Positions 410-57,024 of a stretch of DNA of 64,000 nucleotides are shown piece after piece. This DNA comes from Mobula birostris (taxonomy: Eukaryota), in assembly GCF_030028105.1 (NCBI RefSeq), contig NC_092385.1, positions 25,758,774 through 25,822,773 on the forward strand. Reading direction: 5' to 3'. Numbering within the stretch: position 1 is the stretch's first letter; each line of letters begins with the position of its first letter. The translations under genes and the position numbers were made by a program. Under the pieces are notes generated by a model. It saw nothing but the letters and a program-made list of their open reading frames with translations, was not told where the DNA came from and did not search any database.

Positions 410-1620
410 TATCTCCAGAGACGGCTTATCCACTGATCCAAAGGACTCTCACCACTACCTGGACTGTACCCCGTGCCACCCTGCTACTTGTAAAAATGCC
501 ATCCCCTTGTCTCAGCCGCATCTGCTCTCAGGATGAGGCTTTCCATTCTAGAATGAAGATGTCCTTTTTCAAAGAAAGTGGATTCCATTTTTCCACCATC
601 AATGCTGCCCTCAACCACAACTCTTCCACTTTACACACGTCTGCTCTGAACCCATCCTCCCGCCATGCTACCAGGAATAGGGTTCCTCTTGTCCTCACCT
701 ACCACCCCATCAGCCTCCCCGTCCAGCACAAAATTCTCTACGATGTCCGCCACCTCCAACTGGATCCCACCACTAAACACATCTTTCTCTCACTCCCACT
801 TTATGCTTTCCGCAGGGATCGCTCCCTAGGTGACTCCCTTGTCCATTCGTCCCTCCCCACTGATTCCCTCCTGTCAGTTATTCTTGCAAGTGGAACAAGT
901 GTCTCACCTGCCCCTACACCTCCTCCCTCACTACCATTTAGGGCCCCAAACAGTCCCTTCACCCGTCAGTCTGTTGGGGTCATTTAATGTGCTTGGTGCT
1001 CCCAGTGTGGCCTCTTGTGTATCAGTGAGACCCGACATAGATTGGTAGACCACTTTGCCGAGCACCTACGCTTGTCTGCCAGATCAAGTGGGATCTTCCA
1101 GTGGCCACCCATTTTAATTCCACTTCTCATTCTAATATGTCCATCCATGGCTTCCTCCACTGTCGGGTAAGGCCACACTTAGGTTGGAGGAACACCTTAT
1201 ATTCCGTCAGGGGAGCCTCCAACCTGATGGCATGAACATCAATTTCTCAAAGTTCCAGTAATACCTCCCCCCCCCCACCCACCCACCTACCTACCTTCAC
1301 CGTTTCCCCTCCCTGTGTCCCTCTTTCATGTTATCTCCTTGCCCATCCATCATCTTCCTCTGGTGCTCCTCACCACCCCCTCCCTTTCTTCTTTGTTCTG
1401 TGGCCTTCTGTCTCTTTCACCAATCAACTTCCTAGCTCTTTGCTTCATCCTCCCCCCCCCACTTATTGCCAGGCATTTCTCACTCCCCTCTCTCCCTTCT
1501 AACTCTGACTCATCTTTTTTTTCTCCAGCCCTGCTGAAGGGTTTTGGCCCTAAACGTTGACTGTACTTTTTTCCATAGATGCTGCCTGGCCTGCTGAGTT
1601 CCTACAGCATTTTGTGTGTG
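410..1620 (+). mobile_element. Penelope-like retroelement, 5'-truncated and degenerate (RT C-terminus, GIY-YIG, 3' tail with decayed hammerhead)
   Basis: ORF 496-987 (RICSQDEAFHSR...RVPLVLTYHP...DPTTKHIF) aligns by eye to the 707-aa ORF at 54569-56692; the tail AGATGCTGCCTGGCCTGCTGAGTTCC is shared. Confidence 0.9.
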
Positions 1621-2279
1621 TTACTCACAGTACTTCACTGGGCAAAAAAGGACTTTGCAGCAGGAATTCTTAACTTCAAAAAGGAAAGGTTAAAACACGT
1701 AGCTTGGTCCCCAGTTGTCTTAAAACCTTCCTGGACCAGACGTTACCCGGTGAAGCCCATATGGTAGCTACGACCACCCCGCGTTAAATCATACATGGGC
1801 ATCTTCTAATTCTCAGAATGCTGGCGTGGGCCCAGGTCACCATCAGCCCTGAGGTACTACATAATAGACACCAGAGTCTTCAGATGCTAAAATTTGAAAT
1901 CTGGAGCAATAAACAATACGCTTGGGGCGGGGGGCGGGGCGCTTAGCAGGTCATGCATCATCGATAGAGGGAAATTGTCAATCTAAAGGTCTCCATTCGA
2001 AATGCCGACTGTCATTCTCCCTTTTCGGATGCTGCGTGACCCGCTGAGTTGCTCGGGCATTGTGTTTGACGAGCTATCTAAGGAGCTTCTCATCCATTGC
2101 ATTAGCGGTGTCGTTTTCTCCATCTCCTATATGTTTCTGCCCTGTTGCCCCTACCACCAGAAATCAGTTATATTTTGAATCACGAGAGATTCTGCAGATG
2201 CTGGAAATCTTCAGCACTGCACAGACACAAAGTACTGGAAGAACTCAGCGGGTCAGAAAGCCTCCCGCAGCATGGCCAG

Positions 2280-2449
2280 TCCCCGCATTGACATGGCGCC
2301 CGCTCGGTTTCAAAGAGCGGACGCCCGGCTCGGTTGCGGACGCGAATGGCGATTGGCTGGCTGGGGCGCGGGAAGTGACGTGCCCGGGCCGGTCGGGGGC
2401 CTAGTGCTGCGCTGAGGCCTGCTGCCGGTTTTCGTCGCCTGGCGGTGGG
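2280..2449 (+). promoter_or_regulatory. CpG-rich promoter/5'UTR of RPP14-HTD2
   Basis: Local CpG enrichment; inverted CCAAT box (ATTGG 2352-2356); GGAAGTGACGT ETS-CRE-like composite at 2371-2381, just upstream of the ATG. Confidence 0.7.
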
Positions 2450-2541
2450 ATGATTGGCGCTGGCGAGCAGCGGGCGGGCGCAGTGTACGAGAGGCGCGTT
2501 TACAAGAATGTCTCTGACTACCAGTACATGAAGGTCCGCCT
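2450..2541 (+). CDS. RPP14: RPP14 (RNase P/MRP subunit p14) coding exon 1
   Basis: MIGAGEQRAGAVYERRVYKNVSDYQYMKVR(L), matching the RPP14 YERVVYKN..Y.YMKV.L motif; donor GTGAGT. Confidence 0.92.
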
Positions 2542-2653
2542 GTGAGTGATAGAGGGCGATCTGATGTGGTTCCGCTGCGCACAAGGCTTGTGGTTTTCTG
2601 GTGTGCCACTCAACTCATTCTGTTTCTCTTTTTCTCAATGCAACGATAAATAG

Positions 2654-2738
2654 GGAATTCGAAGCCCCGGGATTCAGGCTGAATGATGTCTCCTTTAAAC
2701 AGATGATCATCTCAGCCCTCAGGGGTTTGCACGGAGAG
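2654..2738 (+). CDS. RPP14: RPP14 coding exon 2
   Basis: EFEAPGFRLNDVSFKQMIISALRGLHGE; TAG acceptor, GTACGT donor; phase consistent. Confidence 0.93.
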
Positions 2739-2742
2739 GTAC

Positions 2743-3188
2743 GTCAAGTCAAGTCACTTTTTATTGTCATTTCATGCATAACTGTTGGTACAGAACATAG
2801 TAAAAATGAGACAACGTTTTCCAGGACCATAGTGCTACATGAAACAATACAAAACTATACTGAACTACGTAAGAAAAAACACAAAAACTACACTAGACCA
2901 CGGACCTATCCAGGACTGCATAAAGTGCACAAAACAGTGCAGGCACTACAATAAATAATAAGACAGTAGGCACAGTAGAGGGTATAGTAGGTTGGTGTCA
3001 AGCCAGGCTCTGGGTATTGAAGAGTCTGATGGCTTGGGGGAAGAAACTGTTACGTAGTCTGGTCGTGAGAGCCTGAATGCTTCGGTGCCTTTTTCCAGGT
3101 GGCAGGAGGGAGAAGAGTTTACATGAGGGGTGCGTGGGGTCCTTCATAATGCTGTTTGCTTTACGGATGCAGCGTGTGGTGTAAATGT
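2743..3188 (-). mobile_element. Rex1/Babar-like LINE 3' fragment
   Basis: On the minus strand, AATAAA followed by a (TGACT)n tail and HP...LLPPGKRHRSI-type C-terminal coding; possible GTAC TSD. Confidence 0.7.
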
Positions 3189-3497
3189 GTACTATAACGC
3201 GAGTTTACAGTATATACAAATAATGGCATGTTGAACCAGGAGTAAAATTATTCTCCCTTCTCCATCAACTTTGCAGTTTGTAATTATCTCAAGAATTTGG
3301 AATATATACATTTTCAAATGTTGTTTGCCGTTGATTTTATATCTTCCAGTCATCTGTTTGCACATTAATGTGAAAAATTGCCTTTGTTTACATTCCCTAA
3401 CTGAATTGTTATTTTTACAAAATCCTTGTGGTGCATTATACTCTCTTAAAAAACGTTGTGAAGTCTTTGATTTGTTCAGCCATCTATGCCACACATA

Positions 3498-4830
3498 CAG
3501 ATTTCCCCTGCTATCCGAAGGTAGAGCGATCCTATGAAGTAGTTCATAAGCCGGAATGTCGTAAAGTGAATAAGCAATTACCATTTACTAATATGGGAAA
3601 AATTTTTGAGCGTTCCCAGACCCAAAGAATAACCTACAAAATCATGCCAAATAACATATAAATCCTAAAATAACAGTAACATATAGTAAGAGCAGGAATG
3701 ATATAAATACACAGCCTGTATAAAGTAGAAATACTTTTCTGCAGCACTGTCTAGCACAGCAAAAATCTTGCGGAAGCGCTCCCAGCAGAAACACACTCTC
3801 CAGTAACCTTTAAGTTATGAAGCTGCCAAATCATACCAAATAACACATAAAAATGCACAGCCTATATAAAGTAGAAATAATGTATGTACAGTGTAGTTTC
3901 ACTTACTGGAATCGGGAAGACTCCAATAAATTGCAGTTTCGTCACAGTTAAACACTTCCTTATATGAATAACCACCTGACACCATCGGCAATTGCCTCTG
4001 ATCTGGGCCAATATTTACGTGCAGGGTGGCACCTAATTAATTCGCATGTTTATTTTGGCTTTTTTCTTAAAGATGTGCTGGGTGCGTTCCGACTACCGCT
4101 GCACTGCTTCATTCTTCGCGGCAATGTATCGGTCCGTGGCCCGGAGGTTGGGGACCACTGCTTAAACTATGAAGCTGCCCTCGCCTCAGAAACCGATCAA
4201 ACCACCCATGACTACCTTTAAATTCCACTTTTGCAACACTTTCATCACCATCGTCCAGTGCTTTCTGTTTCAGCTTACTAAAACGACTGACTAATTTCTT
4301 CTTAAGTATAAGAAAACTTAACGGAACACCATGCTTTGTACACCCATCAATCCACTCAAGCAATAGACTTTCCATTTTATCCATTATTGGATGCCAACTA
4401 AGAGAGACCACTTGGCTATGAGCAGAACCAACAGTAACATCGGCAGCTTTCAAAATTCTTTATCTGCGTATAAATAGTGCGAATGGTGGACGCAGCAAGT
4501 TCAATGCACGGACAATGTCCTTATTTCGTTCACCACAATCGAAACACTTAATTATGTCTAGTTTTACGCTAAGTGTAACACTCTTACAAGCTCTTTCAGG
4601 CTTTTCCAATACCTTAGAACTCATCTTGCTAACGGATGCACAAAATAAATAGAGATAAAGCACGTGTTTAAGCAATGCAGTTCCAGGGGAGGAGCTTGGC
4701 TGTTCGGGCGCTCGCTGCCTTTTTCGTAACAGTGAAAACACCTTCTGTTAGCGAAAATAGGTAACTAATGTAAATCTTTCATAACAGCGAGGTGTCGTAA
4801 AGCAAACGTTTGGAAAACGGGGGCCACCTG
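3498..4830 (-). mobile_element. Tigger/pogo-like DNA transposon, internally deleted
   Basis: TA flanks; imperfect CAG...CTG TIRs; minus-strand fragments KSVTLSVKLDII (psq HTH) and MESLLLEWI...FKGSHGWFDRF (CENP-B/Tc5 HTH). A hAT-like end (GGTTGGGGACCACTG, ~4146-4160) is nested inside. Confidence 0.85.
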
Positions 4831-4952
4831 TAATAACTGGTTGCATGTGGTATGTGTGTATGAATATCTTTCTGGTAAATTACTTAGTTTAGAATCTTCC
4901 TCCAGGTATCACTGAACTAAGCTATTCTCGCAGAAAAGACTCTTGTAAGCCC

Positions 4953-5424
4953 AAACATGAGGAAATCTGCGCTGAAAATCCAAAGCAGCACACTCAAAAC
5001 GCCAGAGGAACTCACCAGGTCAAACAGCATCTATGGAAAAGAATGACTTTTTGGACTGATAGGCTTCTTCAGGGCTGAGGGGGAAGGGGGGAGGTGCCTG
5101 AATTAGATGTAGGGAGAGAAAAGAGACTCACTGGAAGGTAATAGATGAAGCCAGGTGGGTGGGAAAGGTCCCTTCCATTTCTCCTGTTGTCATATCAGAT
5201 TTGTTCTTCTCTAGCCCTTGACCTTTCCCACCCACCGGACTTCTCCTATTACCTTCAGGCCAGCCTTTTTCCTCTTCTTCCCCCCCCCCCAACCCCGCCA
5301 TTTAATTCAGACATCTCCCCCCCCCCCACCTTCCCTCTCAGTCCTGAAGAAGGGTCTCGGCCCAAAAAATCGAGTGTTTGCTCTTTTCCATCGATGCTGC
5401 CTGATCTGCTGACTTCCTAGAACC
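4953..5424. repeat. Inverted pair of Penelope 3' tails
   Basis: A minus-strand tail (~4953-5170) is joined to a plus-strand tail (~5171-5424) with a decayed hammerhead at 5340-5375. Confidence 0.7.
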
Positions 5425-6475
5425 TTTCTGTATTTTTATAAGCTGCTGCTGTGTTCATTGGGGGGTGGGGTAAGTTATGTAGTAATGGAGCTTTATCATC
5501 GGATGGTTTGCTGTACTATTTGATTCTCCTAAATGGCTCCAACTGCTTTCTCCACAAATTTATCAAAGTACATATATGTAACCTCATATAACTTTGAGAT
5601 GTGTTTTCTTGTGGTAAATCCAAGAAACACAATAGAATCAATGAAAAACTGCATCCAGTAGGATGGACAAACAACCAATATGCAAAAGACAACAATCTCT
5701 GCAAATACAAAAGAGAAAAATAATTAAATAAGCAATAATTATTGAGAACACAAGATGAAGAGTCCTTGGAAGTGAGTTCATAGGATGTGGGAACATTTCA
5801 ATGATGGGGCAAGTGAAGTTATCTCTAGTTCAAGAGCCTGATAGTTGAGGGATAATAACTGTTCCTAAGCCTGGTGCTGTGGGTCCTGAGGCTGCTGTAC
5901 CTCCTTCCTGATGGCAAAAGCTTTTCCATTCAAGGGCACTGCTGTTTCCTTAGAAATGGAAAGTTTATTTTTCACCCCAGACACAGCTTATGTTATATGT
6001 TTTCCTGTGTACAAACTGTTAATTCTTTTTATTCCACTGTTCACTATTACAAATGAAATATTTCATTGTAAGTGAGGAGAGTTTTAAGACCACCCCCAAG
6101 ACTGGGACAAATTCTAGTTCATTGCTTCAGGCTGACACATATCAGTGTTAATTGTGATATTGAACTGAAGATTAACTAGTCTTTTAAGCAATTATGTTTA
6201 TAAAATGCATTGCACAATTCAAAGAAAAGTAACAGGTTCTTACTATCCTGGCCTGTATTTATCAACATTAGCATCATCCAATGTAGCACAGCTAAAACTG
6301 GAATTGTATTTACAATTTCATGTTTATCTCTGCTATATCACCCATTTATTGCAATTTTTTCATTCTCTTGGGGGAAGTAGTCACTTTAGTCATTTTTCTC
6401 TATTGAAAATGCACTTTAATGTAAAATAGAGGTTCATATCTGATGCTTAATGTTGTAAAAATGTAAATTTTGCAG

Positions 6476-6552
6476 ATTGGTGCTGCCTTGCCTATTGATG
6501 TTCTGAAACTTGAAGAGCAATCATTAACAGCGATACTAAGGGTGAGAGGAAG
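6476..6552 (+). CDS. RPP14: RPP14 coding exon 3
   Basis: IGAALPIDVLKLEEQSLTAILRVRG(S); CAG/GTGAGT. Confidence 0.93.
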
Positions 6553-7642
6553 GTGAGTGTGCATGTTAATGTACAAAGACATTTGCTGATTTGAATACGG
6601 TAACAGCAATATAGAAGTAATCACTGTGTATTTTATAAGGCTATGTTAGAAGTAGCAATGACTGAATCAGAACTGGTTTTGTTTGTGTAAGTAAGTGGAG
6701 TACACTTCATCTGTAATCATACCCAGCAGAATGACACTTTACTCTAGAGAGAAATTTTAACTAATTGTTTTTTTCTGTCTTATTCCCTTTGCAGCTAGAG
6801 TTGATTTTGCAAATTCCCTTCCTCATCAAATTGGTAACTAGTTCTCTCTCCTTTTGGCTTATCTTCCCTCAGGAAAAACTACTTGGCATTTCTGCTTTTT
6901 TGCAAGCAACCAACATTCCTTTCTTTCAAGAGTTCTTGAGCTTAATATTGTCTCTTTGATCTTTGCTCATCTTTCCTACGGCTCTGTTTTTGAGTCTGTG
7001 TGTTTGAATTTTTTTTCTCACCAGTATATTAACATTGACATTTGACTTGCTTAACCTTTCTTCGACTATTGTCATGCTTGATCCCAACTCTGGTCACTCA
7101 AGTCCTTCATACAAAATCCACCCTGGTAGAATGGTATTCCATTCCAGCCTATTTGATCCTTACCATGTCATTGATAGCAGTGGATTTCTTTCCTGGCTTT
7201 GTACCTTCACCCTCTCTCACAATCTCCATGCTCTTGTATATCCCTATGTCATTGTCGAAGATTAAGACAGATTACAGTTTTAGTGTTAAATGTTTATCTG
7301 CAATAAACTCCATCCCAATCACTGCAATCAAAATGTTGGCTCTTACAAAGCCTGGCTACCTGCTTCCTATCCCACACCAAGCTCTAATCATAGACTAACA
7401 ATATCACTGTAAACCTGTCCTGTCCAAGTGGCTTTTAAATGTCATCATCATAGTCAGCTCAACTACTTTCTCCAGCAGCTTATTTCATGCAAACAACATT
7501 CTCTGTGTGGGTCCCTTTTAAGTCTCCTCTCACCTGTGCTCTTAGTTTTTGGTTATATTTCCCTGGGGAAAAAGACGGAATGCATTCACTCTTATCTGCC
7601 CCTCATGATTTCATACAACTCTGTGTAAGGTAGCTTCTAAGG

Positions 7643-8822
7643 CAGGGGTAGGCAACCTACGGCCCATGGGCCACATCAGGTCCGCGAAGGTATTTTGACC
7701 AGCCCGTGAGCAAATACTGAGATACTATGCTTATCCCGTCAGCGAGCGATTTTTCCTTATTTTGAGTGTTTCACGCGACCATACTGATGGACATGCATGG
7801 CGTCTTGCTACACTGGCCCCAGGTTCCGTTTTGTTCCAAACCAAACACTGGTATATACGAATGACGGGAAGGCAGACTACCTTATTAATATGTATTATAG
7901 ATATTCTCCGTGCACGCGCAGGTTTTCAGATGGGATCATTCAAATTTGTAAATAGAAACAGCGTCACTGTGTTTTAACAAGAAATCCATGCTAAATATCC
8001 AAATAGGGTATTTACATGTGCTGCGATACTTGTTGAATAACTCGCGTTTCGAAATAAAATGAAAGAAAAAAATTCCAATGGCAATGAATGCAAAATGCAG
8101 AAAGGTAGACGCTGAGTGCCGAAAAAGCAGTGAAAATGAAGGAAATACCCATGCCAGCTACAAAGTCTCAAAACATATTGCAGAAAAGATGAAGCCTTTT
8201 ACAAGTGGAGAGTTTGTCAAGAATGTTTACTGGCAGTGGTGGATATTGTTTGCCCTGAAAAGAAATCTTTATTTGCATCTATCAGCCTGTCAGCAAGAAC
8301 GATCACATGGCGAGTTGAAGAAATGTCAGCAGATGTTAAAAGTTGTTTGAGGGATGCCTGCAACGAATTGCATTTTTTTTTCAATTGCGCTTGGTGAGAG
8401 TACAGACTTGAGGGACACTGCTCAACTTGCAGTGTTTGTGCGAGGAGTGACTTCAATTTTTCAAATTTTTGAAGAGTTTATTCAATTAATTCCTATGAAG
8501 GACACGATTACTGGAGCAAACATTTTTGAAGCTTTGCTGAAAATTATGTCAGAAATGAAACTTAATGTGTCGAAGCTAATTGGCATCACAACTGATGGGG
8601 CACCAGCAATGGTGGGACAGAAAAACTAAACTGATTGGCATCCTTGGTAAACACAAATGATTTTCTAGCATGTGTTATTCATTAATTTGAGGTAAAACAT
8701 AACTAAATGTATTTAAATGGATAATTCCCATATTTCAAGTTTCTTATGGCATTTATCTGGCCCACCGTCTGCTCATTAATACGCGATCCGGCCCACAGAG
8801 GCAAAAAGGTTGCCAACCCCTG
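7643..8822 (+). mobile_element. hAT (Charlie/Buster-type) transposon, internally deleted
   Basis: TIRs CAGGGGTAGGCAACC / GGTTGCCAACCCCTG; perfect 8-bp TSD TTCTAAGG (7635-7642, 8823-8830); transposase remnants KPFTSGEFVK, FSIALGESTD..DTAQLAVFVR, ITTDGAPAMVG. Confidence 0.93.
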
Positions 8823-9624
8823 TTCTAAGGAATAAAGTCCCAGCCTGTTCAGCCTCTCACTAATAACTCCAGTCATCGAGTCCAGAGTCCTGCCCTAACT
8901 GATGAAGGTCAGTATGGCAAACAGCCTTTTCATTATCCCTTCTACTTGTGACACCTGTACCTCTGCCAGTCCTGCCGTACTTCCAACCATGTTTCTGTTA
9001 TGGCATTAGTATCCTGGTTCTCAAAGTTGCACCTTCCCCTGCCTTTATTAAATTCATGACTCCGAATGACCAAACACCAAGTTTAAATTATTAGCCTATT
9101 GTATAAATTCACACATGGCTACTCTAATCAATAGCCCTGTATTTCTTCCTTCTACTGAGATGAAAACTGATAATCGTAGAACCACGATTAGGCAGCAACC
9201 ATGGAAAAGGAAACAAGTTAACATTTCCCCCAATGAAGGGTCTCGGCCTGAAACTCAACTGTACCTCTTCCTATAGATGCTGCCTGGCCTGTTGCGTTCA
9301 CCAGCACTTTTTATGTGTGTTGCTTAACATTTCAGGTTGATCTGCAATTTTTATTTTGGCTGTTTCTGAGTCCTGCCTTTTTAAATTATTCCCTTTTCCT
9401 TCATTCGGGTATTGATAGCCATCCCTTTGCCAAGCTCTTCTGTTTCATTGATTTGCTCCTTTTCCTTAAAACATTAACTTTATCAATTGTTTTGTTAATT
9501 TCTCCAGATCACTCCCATTTCTTTCCATTTATGTACCATGAAGTGGCGATTTTCATTGGTGCTGTGTAAAATAGTTGTTGCTGTTTAAACTGCTGGAATA
9601 TATGACAAGACTGTTTGTTTACAG

Positions 9625-9703
9625 TGACCTTGTGAAGCTCTGGAGTGCGTTGACCCTGGTGGCATCCTATAAAGATACGAAGTGTGCTTTCAGAGTTATA
9701 CAG
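9625..9703 (+). CDS. RPP14: RPP14 coding exon 4
   Basis: DLVKLWSALTLVASYKDTKCAFRVIQ; CAG/GTATCA. Confidence 0.95.
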
Positions 9704-11031
9704 GTATCATATGCTTACTATACATGGCTAAAATTTAAGCTGTTTACTCACAGCAGACAAAGTATAGGACTAGGATTATCTAGTTTTAATCAAACTATTT
9801 AGCAGAACAGAATCTGCTGTGGGATTTGTTTAAGCTGTAAGATCAAGGTGCCACTTTCCCTTGCATATATCATCCAGAATTACTTGCAGTTATTTCTCTT
9901 TTCAAAGACTTTGTTGGAAGATAACAAAAATATTTTGGAGACATGAACACTGAAATATATCTCTGCTGCTTGTAGTGAATGTCATCATTCTAAATCACTG
10001 GGGATGGAGCATGCTAAATCAAGCCCATGGTTTCCACTGATACCAGTCTTGTAGCCACATTTAAAAGTTGCAGACATGAAACTCCCATTGCACTACCATT
10101 GTCACTGTAGTCCTTCTATGGAGTTGTTAATTAATTTAAAACCATAAGTATATGTTAAAATAAAAATCCTGAACTCAGCCTTTAAATGAAAGTCATTATG
10201 TGTGGCCTTGCTAGACTGACCAGCTTGGGTGAATGTAAAGCTTCAATGACCCAATCCAATTGTACCCATCCCCTTGTCTTAAATGTGTGTGCGATGTGCA
10301 TGCGCACAGATCTAGAATGCACTGTTGTATGTTCAGCAGCTAAATGCCAGCTTTCTACAAACCAGCCAGCTAGCTACAGTATCAGTGCATTCCGGCCCTT
10401 TAGCTGCTTTCCAGTCTATACGTGCTGCCTGGCCTGAGTCGTTCCAACGTCTATGTATTTTATATCATACCCTTTCTAATTCATTTTTAATATTGCTTCT
10501 GGCTCTGCTTCCTTTTCACTTGATACTTTTCCCTTATTTGATGTGTCATTAATTTTAAAGTTTAATAGAATTTTTCTACCCTAATATTTCTCTTTACATC
10601 CCTTGTACTCCCTGTTGCACCGGTTTGCTGCTCTGTGATTCTGACTTTTTAAATAGATCCTGTTTTTCATGAATCGGGAATGTTATCCTAAACGGATTGT
10701 TGTTTGACAGGCTGGTTTAATTTTTCAGCTAAGCCAGTAATTGCTTTCAGCAATTAACTGAAGTCAAGTGAAAGCGAAACATTCATGAATTCACTATAAG
10801 TAAGCAGTGCATCAAATTGGAAAGATAAATGAAATATATCTGTCAGATTGATGCATTGATATGAGTCTTAATGTTTACTTTTTTCCTTCCTGTAATTAAT
10901 TCACATAAAACTGCTAAAATGTTGTTGTCCTTTAAAGCATGTGAACTAATGATATAATCTTTAATTTTTTAAATTTGCAAATACTCATTGAGTTTACAAC
11001 AATTAATTGCATTTTTATTTCTTCTGTCTAG

Positions 11032-11088
11032 GTCTCTCCTTTTCTTCTTGCACTGTCGGGCAACAGTAGAGAATTTCTGCTGATTTGA
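11032..11088 (+). CDS. RPP14: RPP14 coding exon 5 (stop); the exon continues into HTD2
   Basis: VSPFLLALSGNSREFLLI*; polypyrimidine tract plus TAG acceptor; total CDS 390 nt = 129 aa + stop. Confidence 0.95.
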   Translation, partial: VSPFLLALSGNSREFLLI

Positions 11089-11139
11089 GATCATTGAACT
11101 GACTTGTTGTCTAGACTGGGTTATAACATTTTTGGAAGA

Positions 11140-11658
11140 ATGTCTTTCAGTGGTCCAAGAATTATGCTTGGTATATTTCAGAGAACATTAAAAATGAATC
11201 GGTGGCGTGCAGGTGGCATTGTGATGCTACACGATACTTTTCATAGGTCTGTGCACATTCAAGCTGGGGAGAGAGCTGAACTTACCAGAGTTTTTACACA
11301 GAGTGATGTATTTAACTTTGCAGAGTTAACAGGTGATACTAACCCGCTTCACCTTAGTGAGGATTATGCTAAAGCTCATAGATTTGAAAAACCAGTTGTG
11401 CATGGTATATTAGTATGTGGGTTAGTATCTGCTGTTCTGGGAACCAAAATACCCGGATGTGTTCTTCTATCACAAGAACTCCGTTTCCTCGCACCTTTGT
11501 ATGCAGGTGAACAAGTCTCTGCAGTTCTAGATATAACTAAAATTAAGAGATCTATTGCTTGGATTGCTGTTTCATGCATTGTCAATGAAAATAAGAAGAT
11601 TATTTTGAAAGGGGAAGTCAAGGTAATGCTGCCAGATGGTAAATGTCAAAATGTATAA
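11140..11658 (+). CDS. HTD2: Mitochondrial 3-hydroxyacyl-thioester dehydratase type 2 (MaoC hotdog fold), second cistron, 172 aa
   Basis: Hydratase-2 motif FAELTGDTNPLHLSEDYA, VVHG, SQELRFLAPLY; Arg-rich N-terminus free of acidic residues; 51 nt downstream of the RPP14 stop. Confidence 0.95.
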   Translation: MSFSGPRIMLGIFQRTLKMNRWRAGGIVMLHDTFHRSVHIQAGERAELTRVFTQSDVFNFAELTGDTNPLHLSEDYAKAHRFEKPVVHGILVCGLVSAVLGTKIPGCVLLSQELRFLAPLYAGEQVSAVLDITKIKRSIAWIAVSCIVNENKKIILKGEVKVMLPDGKCQNV

Positions 11659-24495: not shown

Positions 24496-25391
24496 TGACT
24501 TTATCTAAAATTAAAGAATGTGGGGGGAGGGGATGGAGTACAGGCCAGAAGGTGAGTGGAGGAAATGAAGGAATGAAGTAAGAAGATGAGAGGTGATAGG
24601 TGAAAAAGGTAAAGGGCTGGAGAAGAAGGAATCTGATAGAGAGTGGACAATGGGAGGAAGGGAGGGAGGAGAGGCACCAGAGGGAGGATATGGACAGGTA
24701 AGGAGAAGATATAAAAGAGGAGCCAGAGCGGGGAATTGAAGAAGTGAGGAGGGGAGAGGGAAAAATTACCGGAAGTTGCAGAAATCAATGTTCATACCAT
24801 CAAGATGGTGGCTACCCAGACAAAGTTGCTCCTCCAAACGGAGAGTGGCCTCATCGTGGCAGAAGAGGAGGCCATGGACTGACATGTCAGAATGGGAATT
24901 GGAACTAAAATGGTTGTCCACCTTGGGTGGACTTTGGTTGTCCGTCCTGCTTTTTGCGGATGGAGAGGAGATGCTCGACAAAGCAGTCCCCCAATTTATG
25001 TCGGGTCTCACCAATACAGAGGAGGCCATATCGGGAGCACTGGATACAATTGACGACTCCAGTAGATTTACAGGTGAAGTGTTGCCTCACCTGAAAGGAC
25101 TATTCGGGGTCACGAATGGAGGCAAGGGAGGAGGTAAATGAGCAGGTGTAGCACTTCTCCCACTTGCAGAGATGAATGCCAGGAGGGAGATTAGTGGGGA
25201 GGGATGAATGGACAAGTGAATCAGGGAGGCAGTGATCCCTACGGAAAGTAGAGAGTGGTTGGGAGGAAGGAGGTAAATATGTGTTTGGTGGTAGGGTCCC
25301 TTTGAAGATGGCAGAAGTTGCGGAAAATGATGTGTTGGATGCTGAGGCTCATGGTGTGGTAGTTGAGGACAAGCGGAACTTTATCTCTGTT

Positions 25392-26078
25392 GGGGTTTCA
25401 GGGAGGGGTAGCACCTGTGGTGGGGGAACATGTTGCGTCCTTTTCAGGGTGGTTAGTCCACCTTTGGTCCCCACCTGGAACTCAGCTCTCACCTGTGGCT
25501 CCCCGTAGCTGTTTGCGTGCGACAGCGGCCACACCCCGGGCAATGGCTTCGACAAGCCGGCTAAACCAGGTGAAGGTAGCTGACGGGTCTCAAACCCTCA
25601 GTGAGATAGGGAGATGTCTATCCCAGCATGTGAAGACAGACTCTAGCGAATTGAGCAGACGAAACCAATGGAAGATCCAACACTCAAGAAGGCGGTCTCT
25701 GCAAGCATTGTGGAGTGTATAGAGCAGGACAAGACACAGAAGGAGTCCTGGTCATCCACTGCGCCTAGTCCCATCTCCAGCCTTCTCGACTCTTGTCTTG
25801 CCACTGGATCCAGATGGGAATTGGGAAGAGAGAGTGAGGCTGACACAGTGCAACTCTCCCTCTCTTAAATCCAAATCAAGCGCTAATCTCAGCACCATCA
25901 GCCAACTGGTGGCGCAGTGACATCAGAACCAGACTCTGGAGCAAAGGTTCCCGAGTTCAAATCCAGTTGGGCCGCTCCCGGGCACGCTTTCCATCTGTGC
26001 TGGGTTGAGTGTCGAGCTAGCAACTCGACCTCGTAAAAAGTACTAATGGTGTCGAGGTCTTCATTGATTACAATGGAC
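25392..26078 (+). mobile_element. Non-autonomous retroelement (RTE-associated, inferred) with a nested tRNA-derived SINE
   Basis: 16-bp TSD GAACTTTATCTCTGTT (25376-25391) / GAACCTTATCCCTGTT (26079-26094); begins GGGGT; non-coding. Confidence 0.7.
25900..26040 (+). mobile_element. tRNA-derived SINE
   Basis: A box TGGCGCAGTGA, B box GAGTTCAAATCC, short A tail; no complete cloverleaf. Confidence 0.7.
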
Positions 26079-27439
26079 GAACCTTATCCCTGTTAAGGCG
26101 GCCAGAATACAGGCTGAGGGCAGATTCTGGGAAATGTTGGAGATGCAGATGAGGGAATATCAATGGTGGAGGAAGGGAAACCCTGTTCTTTGAAGAAGGA
26201 GGACATTTCTGATATACTGGAAAGGAAAGCTTCATCTTGGGAACAGAAGGAACTGAGAAAAGGGAATGGCATTTTTACAGGAGTCAGAATGGGAAGAGTT
26301 ACAGTCAAGATGACCATGGGAGTTGGTAGGCTTATAAAAGATATTAGTAGACATTTTGGCTCCAGAGATGGAGGCAAAGGGATTGAGGAAGGGGAGAGAG
26401 TTGTCAGAAATGGACCAAGTGGATTTCAGGACAGGGTGGAAGTTGGAGGCCGAGCTGATGAAATTGATGAGCTCAGCATGGGTGTATGAATCAGCATCAA
26501 AGTAGTCCTCAGTGTAGAGCAGAAAGAGATGGGAAGCATTACTAATGAAGGCTTAGAACGTGGACTGTTCCACATAGCGAACCAAAAGTCAAACATAGCA
26601 GAGGCCCATGGCTACCCCTTGAGTTTGGAGGCAGCGGGAAGAGCTGAAAGAGAAATTATTGAGTGATAATAAATATGAATTTGATTCTGAGAATCAGAAT
26701 CAGGTATAATATTGCTCGCACATGTGGTGAAATGTATTGTTTTGTGGCAGATGTGCATTGCATACATAATAAAAAAACTAAATTACAATAAGCAGTATAT
26801 ATTAAAAATAAATTAAGTAGACGGTGCAACAAGAGAGCAACCATTCTGATACAGCACAGAAAGAGGCCCTTCAAACACTTTGATCATGGCTGATTTTTAT
26901 TAAAAATGCAAGAGGCAGCTTCAAAGCTATACCTTGAGTGACCATTTTCAATTTCACCAAAGCCTTTGACTGGATAAACTGGGAAAAAATATGGCATACC
27001 CTCCTCAAATTTGGCTGCTTTCATAGATTGGTCACCATTGCAAAGCTACATATGGGGAAAACAAAAACAAATACAGTATTGGAGTGTTTTCAAAAGATTA
27101 AATATATTTAAAAAGTCGTTCGCGATGCATCTTAGGTTCTATTTCTTTGAATGCATTTTTATTATATTAGTCTAAGTCACATTTTTAACTAATTCCCAAG
27201 CATACAAAGAAATATTTATGAACTACCATGTAATACCTTAACGATGCATTAACTGCCACTCTTAAAGGATTGCATGGCATGAATTCCCTACTTCGATTCC
27301 GATTGCGTTTCTGATTTCTGTTTGTGTATACGGGATAAACGAGGATATCTTTAGGTGTGAACTGATAACTTCCCAGTTACTCCTAAACAGATATGTTACA
27401 TAGTCGTGATCAGGTACTTTTCACTGCATATGTTGATCT

Positions 27440-29532: not shown

Positions 29533-29568
29533 AGTCCTGACGAAGGGTCTGGGCCTGAAATGTCGACT
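29533..29568 (+). ncRNA. Minimal type I hammerhead ribozyme candidate in a solo Penelope tail
   Basis: AGTC-CTGACGA-AGG(GTCTGGG)CCT-GAAA-T-GTC-GACT; core intact, helix I AGTC/GACT. Confidence 0.7.
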
Positions 29569-38320: not shown

Positions 38321-38617
38321 ACTTGAAAATAATTCAAAGCAGACAACCAAAATTTTGTTTGCCGTACAATACACGAATCTCAAATGTTCAGATTACCGTG
38401 TGGTGTTGATGTAAAATGAGCTGACCTAATTTTAAGTAAAGTGCTGGAGGTATTTAACAGGTCCAACAGCATTCATGGACGCAGAAACAACGTTTACATT
38501 TTTCGGAGTGATCTTTCTGAGCATTTTGCTTTTATTTAGGATTTCCAACAGTTTTTGCTTTTGGATTACCCTACTCTTACCTTGTTCTAATTGGTATATC
38601 TGTATTTATCTCTATAG

Positions 38618-38889: not shown

Positions 38890-38920
<31 letters not shown>

Positions 38921-39859: not shown

Positions 39860-40276
39860 CATTCCCCTTCCCTTTCTGTCCTAATGAAGGGTCTTGACCC
39901 AAAATGTCAACTGTTTATTCCTCCCCATAGAAGCTGAATAACTTGGTGAGTTCTTCCAGTATTTTGTGTATGTCTCTCTGGATTTCCAGCATCTGCAGAA
40001 TCTCTTGTGTTTATGATCTAGCATATTTATAAGTGTTGCTGGTGTTGTTTGTTATTGACAAGGTGCCACACATAAAAGTGCTAAGCAGGATAGGAGCCCA
40101 TGATATTACAGAAATGGTCCTAACATGGATGGAATATTAAAAACAAGAGAAAATCTGCAGATGCTGGAAATCAAAGTAATACACACAAAATGCCGGAGGA
40201 ACTCAGCCGGCCAGGCAGCATCTATGGAAAAGAGTAAACAGTCGACGTTTCAGGTTTAGACCCTTCAGCAGGACTG
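39860..40276. repeat. Tail-to-tail inverted Penelope tails (~135 bp each, ~125 bp apart)
   Basis: 39877-40015 (+) is complementary to 40141-40275 (-); both begin with hammerhead-like cores. Confidence 0.8.
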
Positions 40277-42918
40277 AACAGGAAATTGATAGAATTGATA
40301 GACTGAATAGAAATGGATAGAATGTTGGCTGGCTGACGGACAGAGACAAAGAATGGGAATGAAAGAGGCCTTTCCTGACTGGCTGTTGGTGATCAGTGGT
40401 GTTCCGGAAGAGTTTGTGTTGAGTCCACTGCTACTTTTCTCGTTATATGCTAATGACTAGATGATGGAATTGATGGCTTTGTGGCTAAGTTTGTGGATCT
40501 GTGACTCTATGATACAAAGGTAGGTAGAGGGGCATGCAGTACTGAGGAAGCAGGGAGTCTCCAGAAGGACTTGGGCAGTTTTGGAGAATGGGCAAAGAAG
40601 TGGCAAATGGATTGGAGCAAAAGGAAGCATATAGTGGGGAGAGAATTAGAAAATAGCAGTGCAACGGGAATTGGGAATCGTATTGCAGGATTACCTAAAA
40701 ATTTACGATGGGCTTGACAATGTGCTCTCATCTTGGCTCTCTTTAGAAACATCATATGTTGACTTTTTGGGTAGTGAATTTGGCTAAGTGACTGGCCCTT
40801 CTTTGGGACGGCATTTTGGGGATAGTGGTTGAAAACTTCTTAAGTTTTAACGCAGTTCTGATTAAGGATAAGCTGATTAGTTAGGATGTGAAAGGTTACA
40901 GGGAGAATAGGGTTGAGAGAGAATAATAAATCAGCCATGTTCAAATGGCAAAGCAGACTCGATGAACCAAGTGCCCTAATTTAGCTCCTGGACCTAATGG
41001 ATATCAAGGGTATTGTTGGTGTATCTAATCTGTGATTTAACAATGTGCTGTCACCTTGGCTTTCTTTAGAATCATCACATGTTGACTCCTCTAGAACAAT
41101 TGTTGGATTCACTTCAGCAACATCGTTATTTCACAGTTAGGTTTTCCGTTCTCTTGCACTTCGCTTGTTTGGTTACTACACTGAAAGATGACCATAGAGA
41201 TAGGAGCAGAATTGGGCCATTCAGCCCATTGAGCCTGTTCTGCCATTTCATCTTCGCTGATCCATTTTCTCTCAGCCCCTAAAGTATAAGTAATGCCTGC
41301 TTCACTTGAAAAGAAGCGTTTGAGGCTGTTGATTGCACAAAACTCAAAATACAATTGATTCCTTCTGTTGTGGGAAGCCAAAGACTGATTAAGTGACTGC
41401 TCTGAGACACCTCTCTTCAGTTGCTAAGTTTGATCTGGAGCTTCTGTTGCCAGTTACCTCCATTCTCCATCCCTCTCTCTTTGGCATTCTTTCCCATTTC
41501 ACCTTTCCTCTCTTCAGACTTGCTTTTAATTACTTTTTACCATCCTCTTTCAATTTTAAATCTCTTCTGTTACTCATTTTCCCTTTTGTTCTTTCCAGCT
41601 CTCTTCCATTCCATATTTTTTCAAACTTTTTCCTGCTTTGATGAAAGATTATTGACTTGAAACATGAGCTGTGTATCCTTTCCAGTGATGTTGCCTGGTC
41701 TGTCTAGCCCTAGCCCTTCCAGTATTTTTAATTTTCACTTATGAATTCTAGAATTTGCAGTATTTTGCTTTTGTAATAATTTTCCTGAAAGCAGCATCAC
41801 CGGAACATGTTGTTTGTTGAGTGGTGCTGCAGGTAATGTAGCTAACTGTCAATTCCAACAGTTTGGGTTTGATTCTGTCCTCTGAGCTGTAGTTTAAAAA
41901 AAAACTTTTATAAAACTGTAGTGCTGGTAGGTCTATTCAAACTCTTTAATTTGTGGTTTCCTCCCATATCTCGAAGATTTGATAGTTTTTTGGTGAATTA
42001 GCTGCAGTAAATTGCCCCTAGTTGTAGGACAATGGTAATAGAATAGGAGGGAGGTGGTGTTGAGAAGAAAGGGTGTTATTGGCATGAGTTAGAGAATAAA
42101 TTGTAGAATGGGATAAGTGGGATTGCTCTGAGAGCTGGTACAGACTCACTGGGCTAAGTGGCTGTTTTCAATGTCATACTGAAACTAAGAGTTAAATTGT
42201 CCTTTTAGATTTAAAAAAAAATCAACTTGTACCTCACTGATTATGTAACATCTTAAGGCTGTGAAAAGTTCTACATAGGAACAAGACTTTTTTGTGCCAT
42301 TAATATATTTTCCAGCTCATTGAATAAGGATTAATTAATAAGGAATTTAATTGATCCTACTAGTGTTATACTGCAAAGTTTTTTTTAAGCTGCTGTTTTG
42401 ATTACCCTCTTAAAATGAGTGACTAAGGAATTGCTTTTGTCTATTATGATTAAAAGTGGTTTTTACTGGAGCAGCTCAGTTTTGTGGCAGAATGTATTTG
42501 TGCTGTCCATGTTGATTTGGTCCTTGTATTTATGTCACTATTTGTGTTGTAATGATAAATTCTTTCTAGGAAGGATTTGTTTGGGCTTGCTTCTATCTAG
42601 TCCTAAGGTGCTGGATGCCTCCTCCTCGGTTTTATCAGTAGGAGGGATTGTGTTGCTTCTTATCACCCTTTTTGTGAGGATTTAGACTTGTATAGATTGC
42701 CTGCACCTCACAACAACCTTGAATTTATAAAATGAGGTTGTTAATACACAAAAGATGGCAAAACCAGTCCAATTCATTTGGGTTCCAATTTATTATTCAT
42801 TTATGAGTCGATTTTTATTGATCTTTCTGTACTTTAGAAGACTTTTCAATGAACTAACTCTGTTTACATGAGTTCTGGTTAATTGAAGGATGTAAAAATT
42901 GAAATATTTAATTTCAGG

Positions 42919-52133: not shown

Positions 52134-53080
52134 GTTAGTATTCATTGTCCTTACCAGTGTAATAAACTATTCTCGTTATTTCATGCTGTTATATTTATTT
52201 TGAGGTATCCTTGTAATCAAACCTTCCATTTGAATTACTTTCTCTTAGATTTAGATGAGCTGGTTAAATATTTGCTGCTTTCAATGTAGTTTAGACTATG
52301 AAAACAAATCACTTTTATAAATCTAGTTAGCTGAGGCGTTGCCTCTTTTAGTAAAGAAATGCTTTTACTTAGCAATCAGGTATTAGAACTTGTAGAGACA
52401 CAAAAGACTGCAGGTGCTGAGATCTGAAACGACAAACAAACAATGTGCTGGAGGATCTCAGGAGGCTGACTGGCATCTGTGGGATGGAAAGATTTGCAAC
52501 ATCTCAGGTTGAAACCTTGATCAGGACTGAATTAGAAACTATGCAATTCACTTGGGTCAGTTAATTGCCAGTTCATCCTCTGTATTGCTGGCTATTGTGT
52601 AGTTACAGTGGTTTAGAACAGAAATAGAATAATTAATATTATTCTATTAGTGATAATTATATTAATAATTCATTAATAATTTAATTTAATTATTCCTCAA
52701 GTTAAAATTTTGTCTCTGCGTTAAAAACTATATTCTCTTTTTAACTCGCACAGATGTTTAAATCGAAGTTCCTATAGAGAAACTCTTAATTTTTTGAAGC
52801 TGTTATTTGAGGGGATTTTACAGGATTGGTTGGGAAAGGGTGTGTACAAGGGTGAATAGAGAAGAGTTTGAGTTATCTTCCTTTGATTTACCTGCAAGAA
52901 AATGAATCTCAGGGTTATATATGGTGAAATACATATACTTTAATATAAATTTACTTTGACTTTGAACCTTTACTCATGGATAGTATCTTCCACTACATGA
53001 ACAAATAATCAAACACCGAATGTTTTAATTGTCACATTTTGTACAGTTTTTTGTGTTTATATATGTGTGTTACTTTTTAG

Positions 53081-53198
53081 ACAACGGAAGCTATTGATGT
53101 GTATTCCTTTGGCCACGTATTATATGAAATGACTTATGGAAAGCCACCAGATTCTGTTCCAGTAGACAGCTTCCCATCTGCTCCTTCCTCAGATATAG
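53081..53198 (+). CDS. PXK: PXK exon 11
   Basis: TTEAIDVYSFGHVLYEMTYGKPPDSVPVDSFPSAPSSDI. Confidence 0.96.
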
Positions 53199-54479
53199 GT
53201 TAGAAATTCTTAAATTGTATCTTGTTTATTAATTATTTCTAATGCGCCTTGCAAACCTGGTTTGTGCACATTAGCCTGATTTGCTTGCCATCACTTAATA
53301 TTATCCATCATCCTGACCATGTTGTCAGAATGCAGACCAAAATCTGTTTTTAAGAAAAGTGTGTGTGTATGTGTGTGTATATATATCTATCTATCTATCT
53401 GTGTGTGTATATAAAATGCATATATAATATCTGTGTATATCTGGGGCTTTATTCCCTGCGCTGAAATTTAAGTTTATTGGATTCACTGTAAGATCTGCTG
53501 TTATGAAGGTCTAACATTTTTATTAAATAAAGCTAATTGAATTGTATGGAACATTGACAAGGATAGCATTCAACAGACCAGAGAATGTGGCCCTATCAAG
53601 TCCTTTAAAATTGCAGCAATTCCTTTTATATTCTGCCAATGGCTAACATACTCTTGCTTTGCTATAATTGGTTGCTTTACCTGCACAATTAATACATTTC
53701 CTGAATTGCCATTGCAAATTCTTTCCTACTTTTTTTAAAAAAAGAAATGGTATTTATGTTTTCTATTGAAGTTCATAGCTCACATTTGCTTAGAGTATAC
53801 TCCTTTTGACTAACTCTCCGTGTCCCTATGCACAGTTCAGTTTTCCACCAAGCTTTCTGTCACTAATAGTCCTGAAGAATTTGCACATTCTTCTCAACTA
53901 GTCAATGATATAAAAATAAGTGACTTACTTTCCCAGTGTTTCTGTCCTTTAACAATAATCTGTTCAATGTTAACTCTGTGAACCCAAATTTACTGTGAAC
54001 CCAAATAACTTTACTGAACATTACTAAATGCATTTTTAAAAATCCAGCTATCTACTAGTTACCCCTTGTCCATTTTTTTTGGATCAAAATAAAGCTGTTG
54101 TGCTTAAATAAAATAAAATAAAATCACCGACTTTGTCCGCTCAGGGGATCTCCCATCCACTGCAAATAATCTTATTATTAAACCCGCCGATAAGCGGGGT
54201 GCTGTTGTAGTCTGGCGTACTGACCTCTACCTTGCCGAGGCACAGCGACAACTCGCGGATACCTCTTATTTACCCCTCAATCGTGACCCCACTAAGGAGC
54301 ACCAGGCCATTGTCTCCCACACCATCACCGACTTTATCTGCTCAGGGGATCTCCCATTCACTGCAATTCCTCAGATCCCACCGTCAACTCCTGGGCCCTC
54401 AGAGGCTCCATCTTCCTCTCACCCCAACCCTCCCCTCTCCACTGACACACCCAGCCTCCCCCCCTCCCCCCTCTGATCC

Positions 54480-56692
54480 CGGCTCTCATCCGTGCCGGGT
54501 CTTTACCATCCCCTCCGACCTTCAACTGTCAGAGGCAGAACGCTCTGTTCTCAGTAAGGGCCTCACGTTTGTCCCCCTTCGCCCACACCTCAGCGAGTTC
54601 CGTGTTCGCCATGATGCGGAACTTTTCTTCTGCCGTCTCCGTCTCCGAGCCTACTTCTTCAGCAAGGACTCTTCCACCCCCCACCGATGACCCCTTCTCC
54701 CGTCTTCAACCCTCCTCTTCTTCATGGACACCCCGCTCTGGTCTTCTGCCTGCTCTGGATCTCTTTATCGCTAATTACCGACGGGACATCAACCGTCTCG
54801 ACTTCACCGCACCTTGTCCCCAATCCAACCTCACTCCTTCGGAACGCTCTGCTCTCCACTCCCTCCGCACTAATCCTAACCTTATTATTAAACCCGCCAA
54901 TAAGGGGGGTGCTGTTGTAGTCTGGCGTACTGATCTCTACCTTGCCGAGGCACAGCGACAACTCGCGGATACCTCCTCTTATTTACCCCTCGATCGTGAC
55001 CCCACTAAGGAGCACCAGGCCATTGTCTCCCACACCATCACCGACTTTATTCGCTCAGGGGATCTCCCATCCACTGCTACCAACCTTATAGTTCCCATAC
55101 CCCGCACTTCCCGTTTCTACCTCCTACCCAAGATCCACAAACCTGCCTGTCCTGGCCGACCTATTGTCTCAGCTTGCTCCTGCCCCACCGAACTCGTTTC
55201 TGCATACCTCGACACGGTTTTATCACCCCTTGTTCAATCCCTTCCGACCTATGTTCGTGACACTTCTCACGCTCTTAAACTTTTTGATGATTTTAAGTTC
55301 CCTGGCCCCCACCGCTTTATTTTCACCATGGATGTCCAGTCCTTATATACTTCCATCCCCCATCAGGAAGGTCTCAAAGCTCTATGCTTCTTTTTGGATT
55401 CCAGACCTAATCAGTTCCCCTCTACCACCACTCTGCTCCGTCTAGCGGAATTAGTCCTTACTCTTAATAATTTCTCCTTTGGCTCCTCCCACTTCCTCCA
55501 AACTAAAGGTGTAGCTATGGGCACCAGTATGGGTCCTAGCTATGCCTGCCTTTTTGTTGGGTTTGTGGAACAATCTATGTTCCATGCCTATTCTGGTATC
55601 TGTCCCCCACTTTTCCTTCGCTACATCGACGGCTGCATTGGCACTGCTTCCTGCACGCATGCAGAACTCGTTGACTTTATTAACTTTGCCTCCAACTTTC
55701 ACCCTGCCCTCAAGTTTACCTGGTCCATTTCCGACACCTCCCTCCCCTTTCTAGATTTTTCTGTCTCTGTCTCTGGAGACAGCTTATCCACTAATGTCTA
55801 CTGTAAGCCTACTGACTCTCACAGCTATCTGGACTATTCCTCTTCTCACCCTGTTTCTTGCAAAAACGCCATCCCCTTCTCGCAATTCCTCCGTCTCCGC
55901 CGCATCTGCTCTCAGGATGAGGCTTTTCATTCTAGGACGAGGGAGATGTCTTCCTTTTCTAAAGAAAGGGGCTTCCCTTCCTCCACTATCAACTCTGCTC
56001 TCAAACGCATCTCCCCCATTTCACGTACATCTGCTCTCACTCCATCCTCCCGCCACCCCACTAGGAATAGGGTTCCCCTGTTCCTCACCTACCACCCCAC
56101 CACCCTCCGGGTCCAACATATTATTCTCCGGAACTTCCGCCACCTTCAGCGGGATCCCACCACTAAGCACATCTTTCCCTCCCCCCCCCCCCCCCCCGCA
56201 TTCCGCAGGGATCGCTCCCTACGCAACTCCCTTGTCCATTCGTCCCCCCCATCGCTCCCCACTGATCTCCCTCCTGGCACTTATCCGTGTAAGCGGAACA
56301 AGTGCTACACATGCCCTTACACTTCCTCCCTTACCACCATTCAGGGCCCCAAGCAGTCCTTCCAGGTGAGGCAACACTTCACCTGTGAGTCGACTGGGGT
56401 GATATGCTGCGTCCGGTGCTCCCGATATGACCTTTTATATATTGGCGAGACCCGACGCAGACTGGGAGACCGCTTTGCTGAACATCTACGCTCTGTCCGC
56501 CAGAGAAAGCAGGATCTCCCAGTGGCCACACATTTTAATTCCACATCCCATTCCCATTCTGACATGTCTATCCACGGCCTCCTCTATTGTAAAGATGAAG
56601 CCACACTCAGGTTGGAGCAACAACACCTTATATTCCGTCTGGGTAGCCTCCAACCTGATGGCATGAACATCGACTTCTCTAACTTCCGCTAA
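54480..56692 (+). pseudogene. Penelope RT-GIY-YIG ORF with one frameshift and active-site substitutions
   Basis: LSKGLTFVP frame joins the 707-aa frame across C6 at 54677-54682; KPANKGGAVVV, FYLLPKIHK, MDVQSLYTSI, GVAMG, RYIDG (canonical YIDD), GVIC...YIGET..R..EH. Confidence 0.9.
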
Positions 56693-56988
56693 GGCCCCAC
56701 CTCCCCCTCGTACCCCATCTGTTACTTATTTTTATGCACACATTCTTTCTCTCACTCTCCTTTTTCTCCCTCTGTCCCTCTGAATATACTTCTTACCCAT
56801 CCTCTGGGTTCCCCCCCACCCCCGTCTTTCTTCCCGGACCTCCTGTCCCATGATCCTCTCGTATCCCCTTTTGCCCATCACCTGTCCAGCTCTTGGCTCT
56901 ATCCCTCCCCCTCCTGTCTTCTCCTATCATTTTGGATCTCCCCCTCCCCCTCCAACTTTCAAATCCCTTACTCACTCTTCCTTCAGTT

Positions 56989-57024
56989 AGTCCTGACGAA
57001 GGGTCTCGGCCTGAAACGTCGACT
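56989..57024 (+). ncRNA. Minimal type I hammerhead ribozyme in the Penelope tail
   Basis: AGTC-CTGACGA-AGG(GTCTCGG)CCT-GAAA-C-GTC^-GACT; all core nucleotides present; palindromic ACGT helix III; predicted cleavage after C57020. Confidence 0.8.

Follow-up and report, generated by a model that had tools for sequence, protein, structure and literature searches.

Genes and hammerhead motifs in the window

The DNA analyzed here is a stretch of 64,000 nucleotides from Mobula birostris (contig NC_092385.1, positions 25,758,774 to 25,822,773; hereafter the window, by whose numbering positions are given), in which a preliminary description had noticed nine dispersed hammerhead ribozyme motifs of 36 nucleotides (nt). 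The coding exons of PXK lie on the plus strand (27647–60036), starting at 27647, 38618, ~44226, 44941, 48649, 49476, 50966, 51742, ~51970, 53081, and 59956; they were placed by TBLASTN with the ray proteins P0005 and P0013, which they match at ~80–100%, and by a motif scan. The exon for residues 130–155 was not placed, and the gene ends ~26 kb past the window. On the same strand at 2459–11580 are a gene that we take to be Rpp14-like (Pfam E = 0.01) and, following it, a MaoC-dehydratase open reading frame (ORF; Pfam E = 2×10−18), presumably HTD2-like.

All nine motifs were found again at the positions and strands, and in the states, first given for them. A profile hidden Markov model (HMM) built from strict matches to the motif found 15 copies in the window, six more than the original nine, and no match in the reversed window or in reversed sampled genic DNA. 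The motif at 56989–57024 (plus strand) is a fully intact minimal type-I hammerhead, consisting of CUGACGA, one extra A, helix II, GAAA, and helix I, in which a palindromic ACGU stands in for helix III and cleavage is predicted to follow GUC at 57020. It thus holds the whole minimal core (CUGANGA, GAAA-N-N-UH, helices I and II), and its ACGT palindrome is shared by the majority of the family, bearing out the identification as hammerheads. An Rfam search of the window gave six matches at E ≤ 1, none of them a hammerhead or near the gathering score, so this minimal variant is missed by Rfam. The cut site lies within a further palindrome, GTCGAC (57018–57023), through which two RNAs can pair at a predicted ~−10 kcal/mol; such pairing would compete with the active dimer.

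The copy at 29533 is a solo stub of 135 bp in PXK intron 1 (29533–29667, plus strand) that begins exactly at the first base of the ribozyme (hereafter +1) and is flanked by an exact 11-bp duplication (29522–29532/29668–29678). Two near-intact copies had been proposed to lie on the PXK pre-mRNA; both are indeed sense copies in PXK introns, the other lying between exons 53081 and 59956, but it had been overlooked that the 29533 copy, with its intact core, has ATGT in helix III in place of the palindrome, which a dimer would require.

The Penelope-like element carrying the motif

The 56989 motif belongs to a young, 5′-truncated Penelope-like element of ~3 kb in the PXK intron (54110–57086, plus strand), which comprises a reverse transcriptase (RT), a CX4CX2C linker, a GIY-YIG domain, a 3′ untranslated region (UTR), the hammerhead, and a tail, within a 16-bp target-site duplication with one mismatch (54094–54109/57087–57102). 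Its open frame runs from 54503 to 56689; the Pfam matches to RVT_1 (E = 0.0016) and GIY-YIG (E = 0.003) are both below the curated cut-offs, and the motifs were read directly. The combination of RT, CX4CX2C linker, and GIY-YIG identifies an endonuclease-positive (EN+) Penelope-like element of Neptune/Nematis type, as these are characterized in the available text of Craig et al. (2021; PMC8557442), where a CX2-5CxxC linker and a CCHH motif mark Neptune and are common to Nematis. The linker reads CKRNKCYTC, and CCHH is intact in a young copy on contig C1, with one Cys changed in the window copy. The single ORF with RT followed by the GIY-YIG endonuclease, interrupted by one frameshift near its 5′ end, the 5′ truncation, an inverted 5′ copy, an optional tail, and the target-site duplication are also those of EN+ elements. 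Judged by these sequence features, the family consists of the hammerhead-bearing terminal repeats belonging to a Penelope-like retroelement of Neptune type, of a kind reported in 2014.

The 5′ junction of the 3-kb element (54110–54400) contains duplicates of two short stretches from the element's ORF, 53 and 201 nt long, which suggest template jumps. The 26 nt before the ribozyme (56963–56990 and equivalents) resemble a strong 3′ splice site, with a branch-like TACTAAC or TACTCAC, a pyrimidine tract, and CAG; attached copies nevertheless show no antisense bias (40 sense:32 antisense).

Abundance and variants in the genome

The strict pattern of the preliminary description matches the genome 70,254 times (34,934 + 35,320) and its reverse not once. 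This gives an expectation of 1.1 per 64 kb, against three in the window, and the window is therefore average for this genome. The profile HMM found 330 copies in 1,864 kb of sampled DNA (11.3 per 64 kb). Among the 215 that retain the ribozyme region, 48 are core-intact and 22 fully competent; 76 are attached to the upstream element, 30 attached and inverted, 59 unattached and inverted, and 50 neither, where inverted denotes a neighbor at less than 1.2 kb, a label that wrongly pairs some neighbors such as 28362 and 29533. Close neighbors are head-to-head in 75 cases, tail-to-tail in 17, and on the same strand in 29.

The commonest young variant has CCTG where other copies have CCCG, which turns the conserved G10.1–C11.1 pair into G·U, so the most successful subfamily may, on sequence grounds, carry a weaker ribozyme. 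A possible subfamily whose ribozyme would be dead through a G at the cut site was suggested by four of eight loci that looked alike, and only three unrelated older copies of this sort occur among the 215 sampled. Two arrays were also seen, one at locus L203 (C1, ~59.379 Mb), retrozyme-like, in which tandem 73-nt units each start at ribozyme +1, and one on C9 (~21.104 Mb) with a spacing of 58 nt.

Orientation and integrity of copies inside genes

The preliminary description had proposed that selection might act on the orientation or integrity of copies inside genes. We sampled eight large genes, delimited by runs of same-strand Pfam exon matches, taking 1,740 kb from inside them, plus PXK; 315 of the 330 copies lie inside these nine genes, and the 15 outside PXK were excluded. 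The intragenic copies number 151 sense and 164 antisense (P = 0.50; sense fraction 0.48, 95% confidence interval [CI] 0.42–0.54). Core-intact copies are 27:19 (CI of the sense fraction 0.43–0.73) and core-broken copies 79:80 (intact vs. broken, P = 0.32, Fisher's exact test), fully competent copies are 12:9, and the strict pattern alone gives 13:18 in the genic sample. Outside inverted pairs the counts are 79:87, with 18:11 for the core-intact among them. A 1:2 sense deficit is rejected both overall (P = 6×10−8) and for core-intact copies (P = 4×10−4).

Nor does the decay of the ribozyme depend on its strand. Core positions have diverged by 9.8% in sense and 11.2% in antisense copies, and loop positions by 10.0% and 11.2% (81 sense and 78 antisense copies), whereas CpG sites have diverged by 36–37%, more than three times the ~10% of core or loop, alike on both strands. 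Among otherwise exact 32-mers genome-wide, the cleavage-site C has changed to a purine in 169 cases and the loop CpG C in 206 (P = 0.06); selection for inactivation at the cut site is thus not seen, the difference running in the opposite direction. The even orientation, the equal divergence of core and loop, and a cleavage-site C that changes no more often than one in the loop all speak against the proposed selection, and the copies in host introns are likely inert there. Introns apparently tolerate tens of thousands of intact minimal hammerheads in sense orientation, a finding compatible with a requirement for a nearby partner or for the protein of the element.

In the available text of Cervera and De la Peña (2014; PMC4209133), single minimal hammerheads are inactive and dimers weakly active, which agrees with the need for a dimer considered in the preliminary description; a dimer result of Lünse et al. 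(2017) is cited in a review (PMC6765202). Pairing in cis of the two PXK copies is nevertheless unlikely, given their distance of 27.5 kb, the nine placed and one unplaced exons between them, and the broken palindrome of the 29533 copy. The predicted 4-bp helix III has +0.1 kcal/mol for this pair as against −1.7 for two copies of the 56989 type, by a program that has no model of the ribozyme fold. Transcription proceeds at 2–4 kb per minute, at which 7–14 minutes would separate the two copies, and intron 1 would often be gone already. A better test case for a cis dimer than the PXK pair is locus pair L144–L145 (G000:C1, ~236.344–236.346 Mb), where an intron of a gene with epidermal growth factor repeats holds two sense copies, both fully competent, at a distance of 1.07 kb.

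Start positions of the short copies

Many short copies have a fixed start at the first base of the ribozyme. Of the 44 copies classed as young by a tail identity of 93% or more, nine extend beyond −450, 16 start in −449 to −11, 12 in −10 to +10, and seven in +11 to +40; the density of 5′ starts is 0.60 per nt at −10 to +10 and 0.036 at −449 to −11, a ~16-fold difference (P = 7×10−10). A peak far above ordinary truncation is therefore present at +1, as had been proposed, and there is none at the cut site, since none of the 44 starts at +33. Genome-wide, 22,593 exact 32-mers were found, and the base at −1, which is T in the element, is a pyrimidine in 21,468, G in 694, and A in 431. Purines thus make up 5.0% (1,125) at −1, compared with 1.1% (245) at −2 and 2.2% (489) at +3, the level of point mutation being ~0.8–1.1%; at +3, G accounts for only 27 of the 100 cases listed.

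Of 50 loci with a purine at −1 that were examined, 48 are junctions and two are point changes. The first 30 loci with G comprise 19 inverted copies, eight solos with a duplication, one solo without, one tandem, and one attached copy, and the first 20 with A comprise nine inverted copies, six solos with a duplication, four without, and one attached copy. Seven of the eight G loci that are solos with a duplication have extra bases at the junction, ending in G, as against one of the six corresponding A loci with extras (P = 0.026). Of 106 attached copies, 82 fit the initiator pattern YYANWYY in their context from −2 to +5. In L1 and SVA, cap copying is marked by an untemplated G where the 5′ end is full-length, according to the available text of PMC3287187.

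In the window, exact target-site duplications flank two solos, 29533 and a stub at 9228–9323 (plus strand; 10 bp, 9218–9227/9324–9333), which starts inside the ribozyme. The latter lies in the Rpp14-like gene within an older minus-strand tail fragment, its insertion point being the helix III/I region of that older copy (9190–9333). The duplication finder was positive in 11 of 52 unattached copies and in 5 of 69 attached control copies, and is thus weak on old copies.

A proposed capped start as the origin of the short copies

We consider that the family represents the ends of a Neptune-type Penelope-like element, that it shows no bias of orientation or integrity and is likely inert in introns, and that its stubs are likely products of RT running off at a capped RNA 5′ end located at +1; to this joint reading we give a probability of about 0.7. 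The link to RT and GIY-YIG, the copy number, the lack of bias in the sample, the peak of junctions at +1, the target-site duplications, and the head-to-head doublets are its observed parts. The transcript would begin, capped, at +1 of an upstream terminal repeat, and would carry the priming region twice, once ~95–135 nt from the RNA 5′ end and once at the 3′ end. Priming at the 3′ region would yield ordinary 5′-truncated elements. From priming at the 5′ region would come a stub of 95–135 bp that stops at +1 and in some cases bears a G from the cap, and head-to-head doublets would result when both strands are primed. After insertion, the ribozyme would decay neutrally, mostly at CpG. The 3′ ends cluster near +95–105 and +129–135, as two priming sites would give.

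A similar behavior is known from Poseidon PAc of Anolis (Frangieh et al. 2024; PMC11167929), in which reverse transcription begins at two internal priming sites that set the limits of the tail, in keeping with the two classes of 3′ end here. Both strands of the target are extended in that system, the RNA used is mainly uncut, and no RNA-seq ends fall at the cut site in Anolis. It differs in its clade and in its ORF, which starts inside the ribozyme, and stub formation is not addressed in the available text of that paper.

Several points weigh against this interpretation. The bias was measured within genes only, in nine genes of unknown expression, eight of them large matrix or receptor genes, and the counts are compatible with a mild bias (under ~10 percentage points, for intact copies) or with one limited to highly expressed genes. 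The excess of G at −1 is largely templated, 19 of the 30 G loci being inverted doublets and eight of these being joined at one AG microhomology; the extra-base test covers the first 14 loci of a single contig, where a number of the additional bases are stutters of the target DNA. Starts are also scattered from +2 to +40, including the seven at +11 to +40. The RNA 5′ end is not seen in the RNA data, which are contigs only and for which the table of common ends is empty; contigs cover the 3′ part of the element in four of four runs, with all members of the family contributing, and the joints into +1 that they contain were not used as evidence, since subfamilies with different UTRs are their probable cause. 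A tail continuing into the ORF was not found, since none of three matches to the 5′ part of the ORF, in a sample without a full-length copy, has a ribozyme within 900 bp upstream as a pseudo-long terminal repeat (pLTR) would provide; the leader layout is thus assumed.

The peak at +1 could instead reflect microhomology joining, a pause, or an RNA end related to splicing, all effects of DNA repair or RNA structure, for many junctions are explained by microhomology, the 26 nt before +1 resemble a 3′ splice site, and an intron of Drosophila ends at helix I (available text of PMC4209133). However, the candidate acceptors predict ends at −2 or +3 and not at +1, helix I should be met at +36, not +1, by an enzyme that travels in the 3′-to-5′ direction, and extra Gs occur in solos whose target has none (L194, L218, and L202), so we regard this as unlikely, if the strongest of the competing explanations. 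Alternatively, the stubs could be a self-propagating, non-autonomous family resembling short interspersed elements (SINEs), in which an internal promoter would make a stub from +1 a whole transcription unit that can be copied again. An internal promoter has been described for Drosophila Penelope (PMC2377424, in the text available), solos have duplications of their own, and the L203 array is built of units from +1. Yet by inspection solos share variants and both clusters of 3′ ends with attached copies, and their spread starts and many doublets are what fresh by-products would show. Such a family is improbable, and the short ribozyme-headed elements of the preliminary description, right in that their starts are non-random at the ribozyme, are better read as stubs of the autonomous element.

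The model put forward in the preliminary description, in which sense copies in different introns pair in cis and cut the nascent RNA, so that selection removes or inactivates intact sense copies, is very improbable. Minimal dimers do cleave weakly (PMC4209133), tandem retrozymes are under-represented in Xenopus introns according to the available text of Li et al. (2026; bioRxiv 10.64898/2026.07.22.740005), and some genes hold several competent sense copies. But there is no depletion even of intact or competent sense copies, five competent sense copies are tolerated in one gene and three in another (where two form the pair 1.07 kb apart), helix III of the PXK heterodimer is predicted to be unfavorable, and eight of nine Xenopus tandem dimers remained uncut in vitro (Li et al. 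2026). Least probable of all is run-off from ribozyme-cut RNA, rejected for this sample: a purine just before the cut product is found 822 times versus 418 at a control position, but of eight such loci, seven reflect a point change of a CpG cytosine and one a fold-back, none of the 44 young copies starts at +33, and the stubs retain the catalytic core, whereas a cut product would have lost it.

The capped start may be taken one step further. The stubs, in their thousands, could be fossil products of 5′ rapid amplification of cDNA ends, recording a capped start at hammerhead base 1, 32 nt before the cut; the ribozyme would then be a decapping switch on the element's RNA and not a means of release from host transcripts, and stubs and doublets would come from priming at the wrong (5′) copy. 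We propose this tentatively. The fixed start, which bears on the transcription of Penelope elements and on the function of their ribozyme and leads to the precise prediction of a capped 5′ end at +1, matters more here than the negative result on host cutting, although the latter is of some value.

Comparison with known systems

The type of family is already known, and host pre-mRNA cutting as proposed is not supported; what is new here are the tests of orientation and integrity bias and the comparison of extra Gs. A literature search outside subscription papers returned no report on retrotransposon ribozymes with an intron orientation bias, and none on Penelope copies starting at the ribozyme. 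The following comparisons draw on the available text of each paper. The metazoan minimal hammerheads of Cervera and De la Peña (2014) likewise have a type-I fold without a real helix III, a palindromic 15.2–16.2, and an extra base between A9 and G10.1, and are mostly dispersed singles, with opposite-strand pairs within 1 kb. In contrast, our strict pattern gives 70,254 copies as against ~4,000 in coelacanth and ~9,000 in Xenopus by that paper's descriptor, and the commonest young variant here has G·U at 10.1–11.1; cartilaginous fish are not named there among the hosts.

EN+ elements of Neptune/Nematis type (Craig et al. 2021) share with the element the order of RT and GIY-YIG, the CX2-5CxxC linker, heavy 5′ truncation, the inverted 5′ copy, and an optional tail of 30–40 bp, whereas a sharp peak of 5′ ends at ribozyme base 1 with an extra G is absent from the text available. 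The non-LTR (long terminal repeat) retrozymes of Li et al. (2026) are also Penelope-derived, non-coding, and equipped with a type-I hammerhead; they are, however, defined by tandem units, which occur in none of the 15 copies of the window, these being dispersed singles or inverted doublets, and in one of the 50 junction loci elsewhere. The Penelope pLTRs of Adineta vaga (Arkhipova et al. 2013; PMC3846280) also form solos and head-to-head palindromes with duplications of 8–10 bp and have an Inr-like motif, but their copy number is low, and they are attributed there either to recombination or to self-priming with an antisense template.

Remaining copies and repeats

It had been stated that many copies in the window are solo tails. 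About four of the nine can be so described, namely 29533 and 9230 with their exact duplications, and 40240 and 52493, which look solo, with duplications seen by eye only and missed by the duplication finder. The last two are on the minus strand and consist of a hammerhead and tail, the former with a single A6>C change (40141–40275, motif 40240–40275) and the latter decayed (52407–52528, motif 52493–52528). The motifs at 1527, 28362, and 56989 are instead the 3′ ends of longer Penelope fragments. The first ends an older 5′-truncated copy upstream of the Rpp14-like gene (412–1625, plus strand; decayed hammerhead 1527–1562), which is 71% identical to the 3-kb element over 1,319 columns. The second belongs to another such copy, antisense in PXK intron 1 (28251–29108, minus strand), with endonuclease region, UTR, hammerhead (28362–28397), and tail, in which the core is intact and two of four helix I pairs are kept. 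Inside the Rpp14-like gene, a head-to-head doublet (4971–5433) has a minus arm at 4971–5074 and a plus arm with a decayed hammerhead (5340–5375), a UTR part in each, and inverted arms at 5115–5170/5220–5275. The copy at 39877–40012 (plus strand) has a decayed hammerhead, a tail, and probably a short UTR piece upstream, where the pyrimidine-rich flank resembles the 3′ UTR of the element (not matched to another copy).

Old fragments absent from the original list lie at 1878–2264 (a doublet, 1878–1983 minus and 1985–2068 plus, and a minus-strand tail, 2189–2264), at 38438–38508 (minus strand; a weak match, E = 7×10−4), and at 41639–41760 (plus strand; decayed). An old minus-strand fragment of the Penelope ORF without ribozyme or tail occupies 24766–26663. 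Elsewhere in the genome, exon matches repeat with identical scores on G000:C7 (186.47–187.06 Mb) and C5 (36.24–36.45 Mb), at fixed offsets of ~347 kb and ~115 kb, which suggests tandem duplications or assembly doubles. Finally, a 34-bp minisatellite at 59436–59904 ends ~50 bp before a PXK exon.

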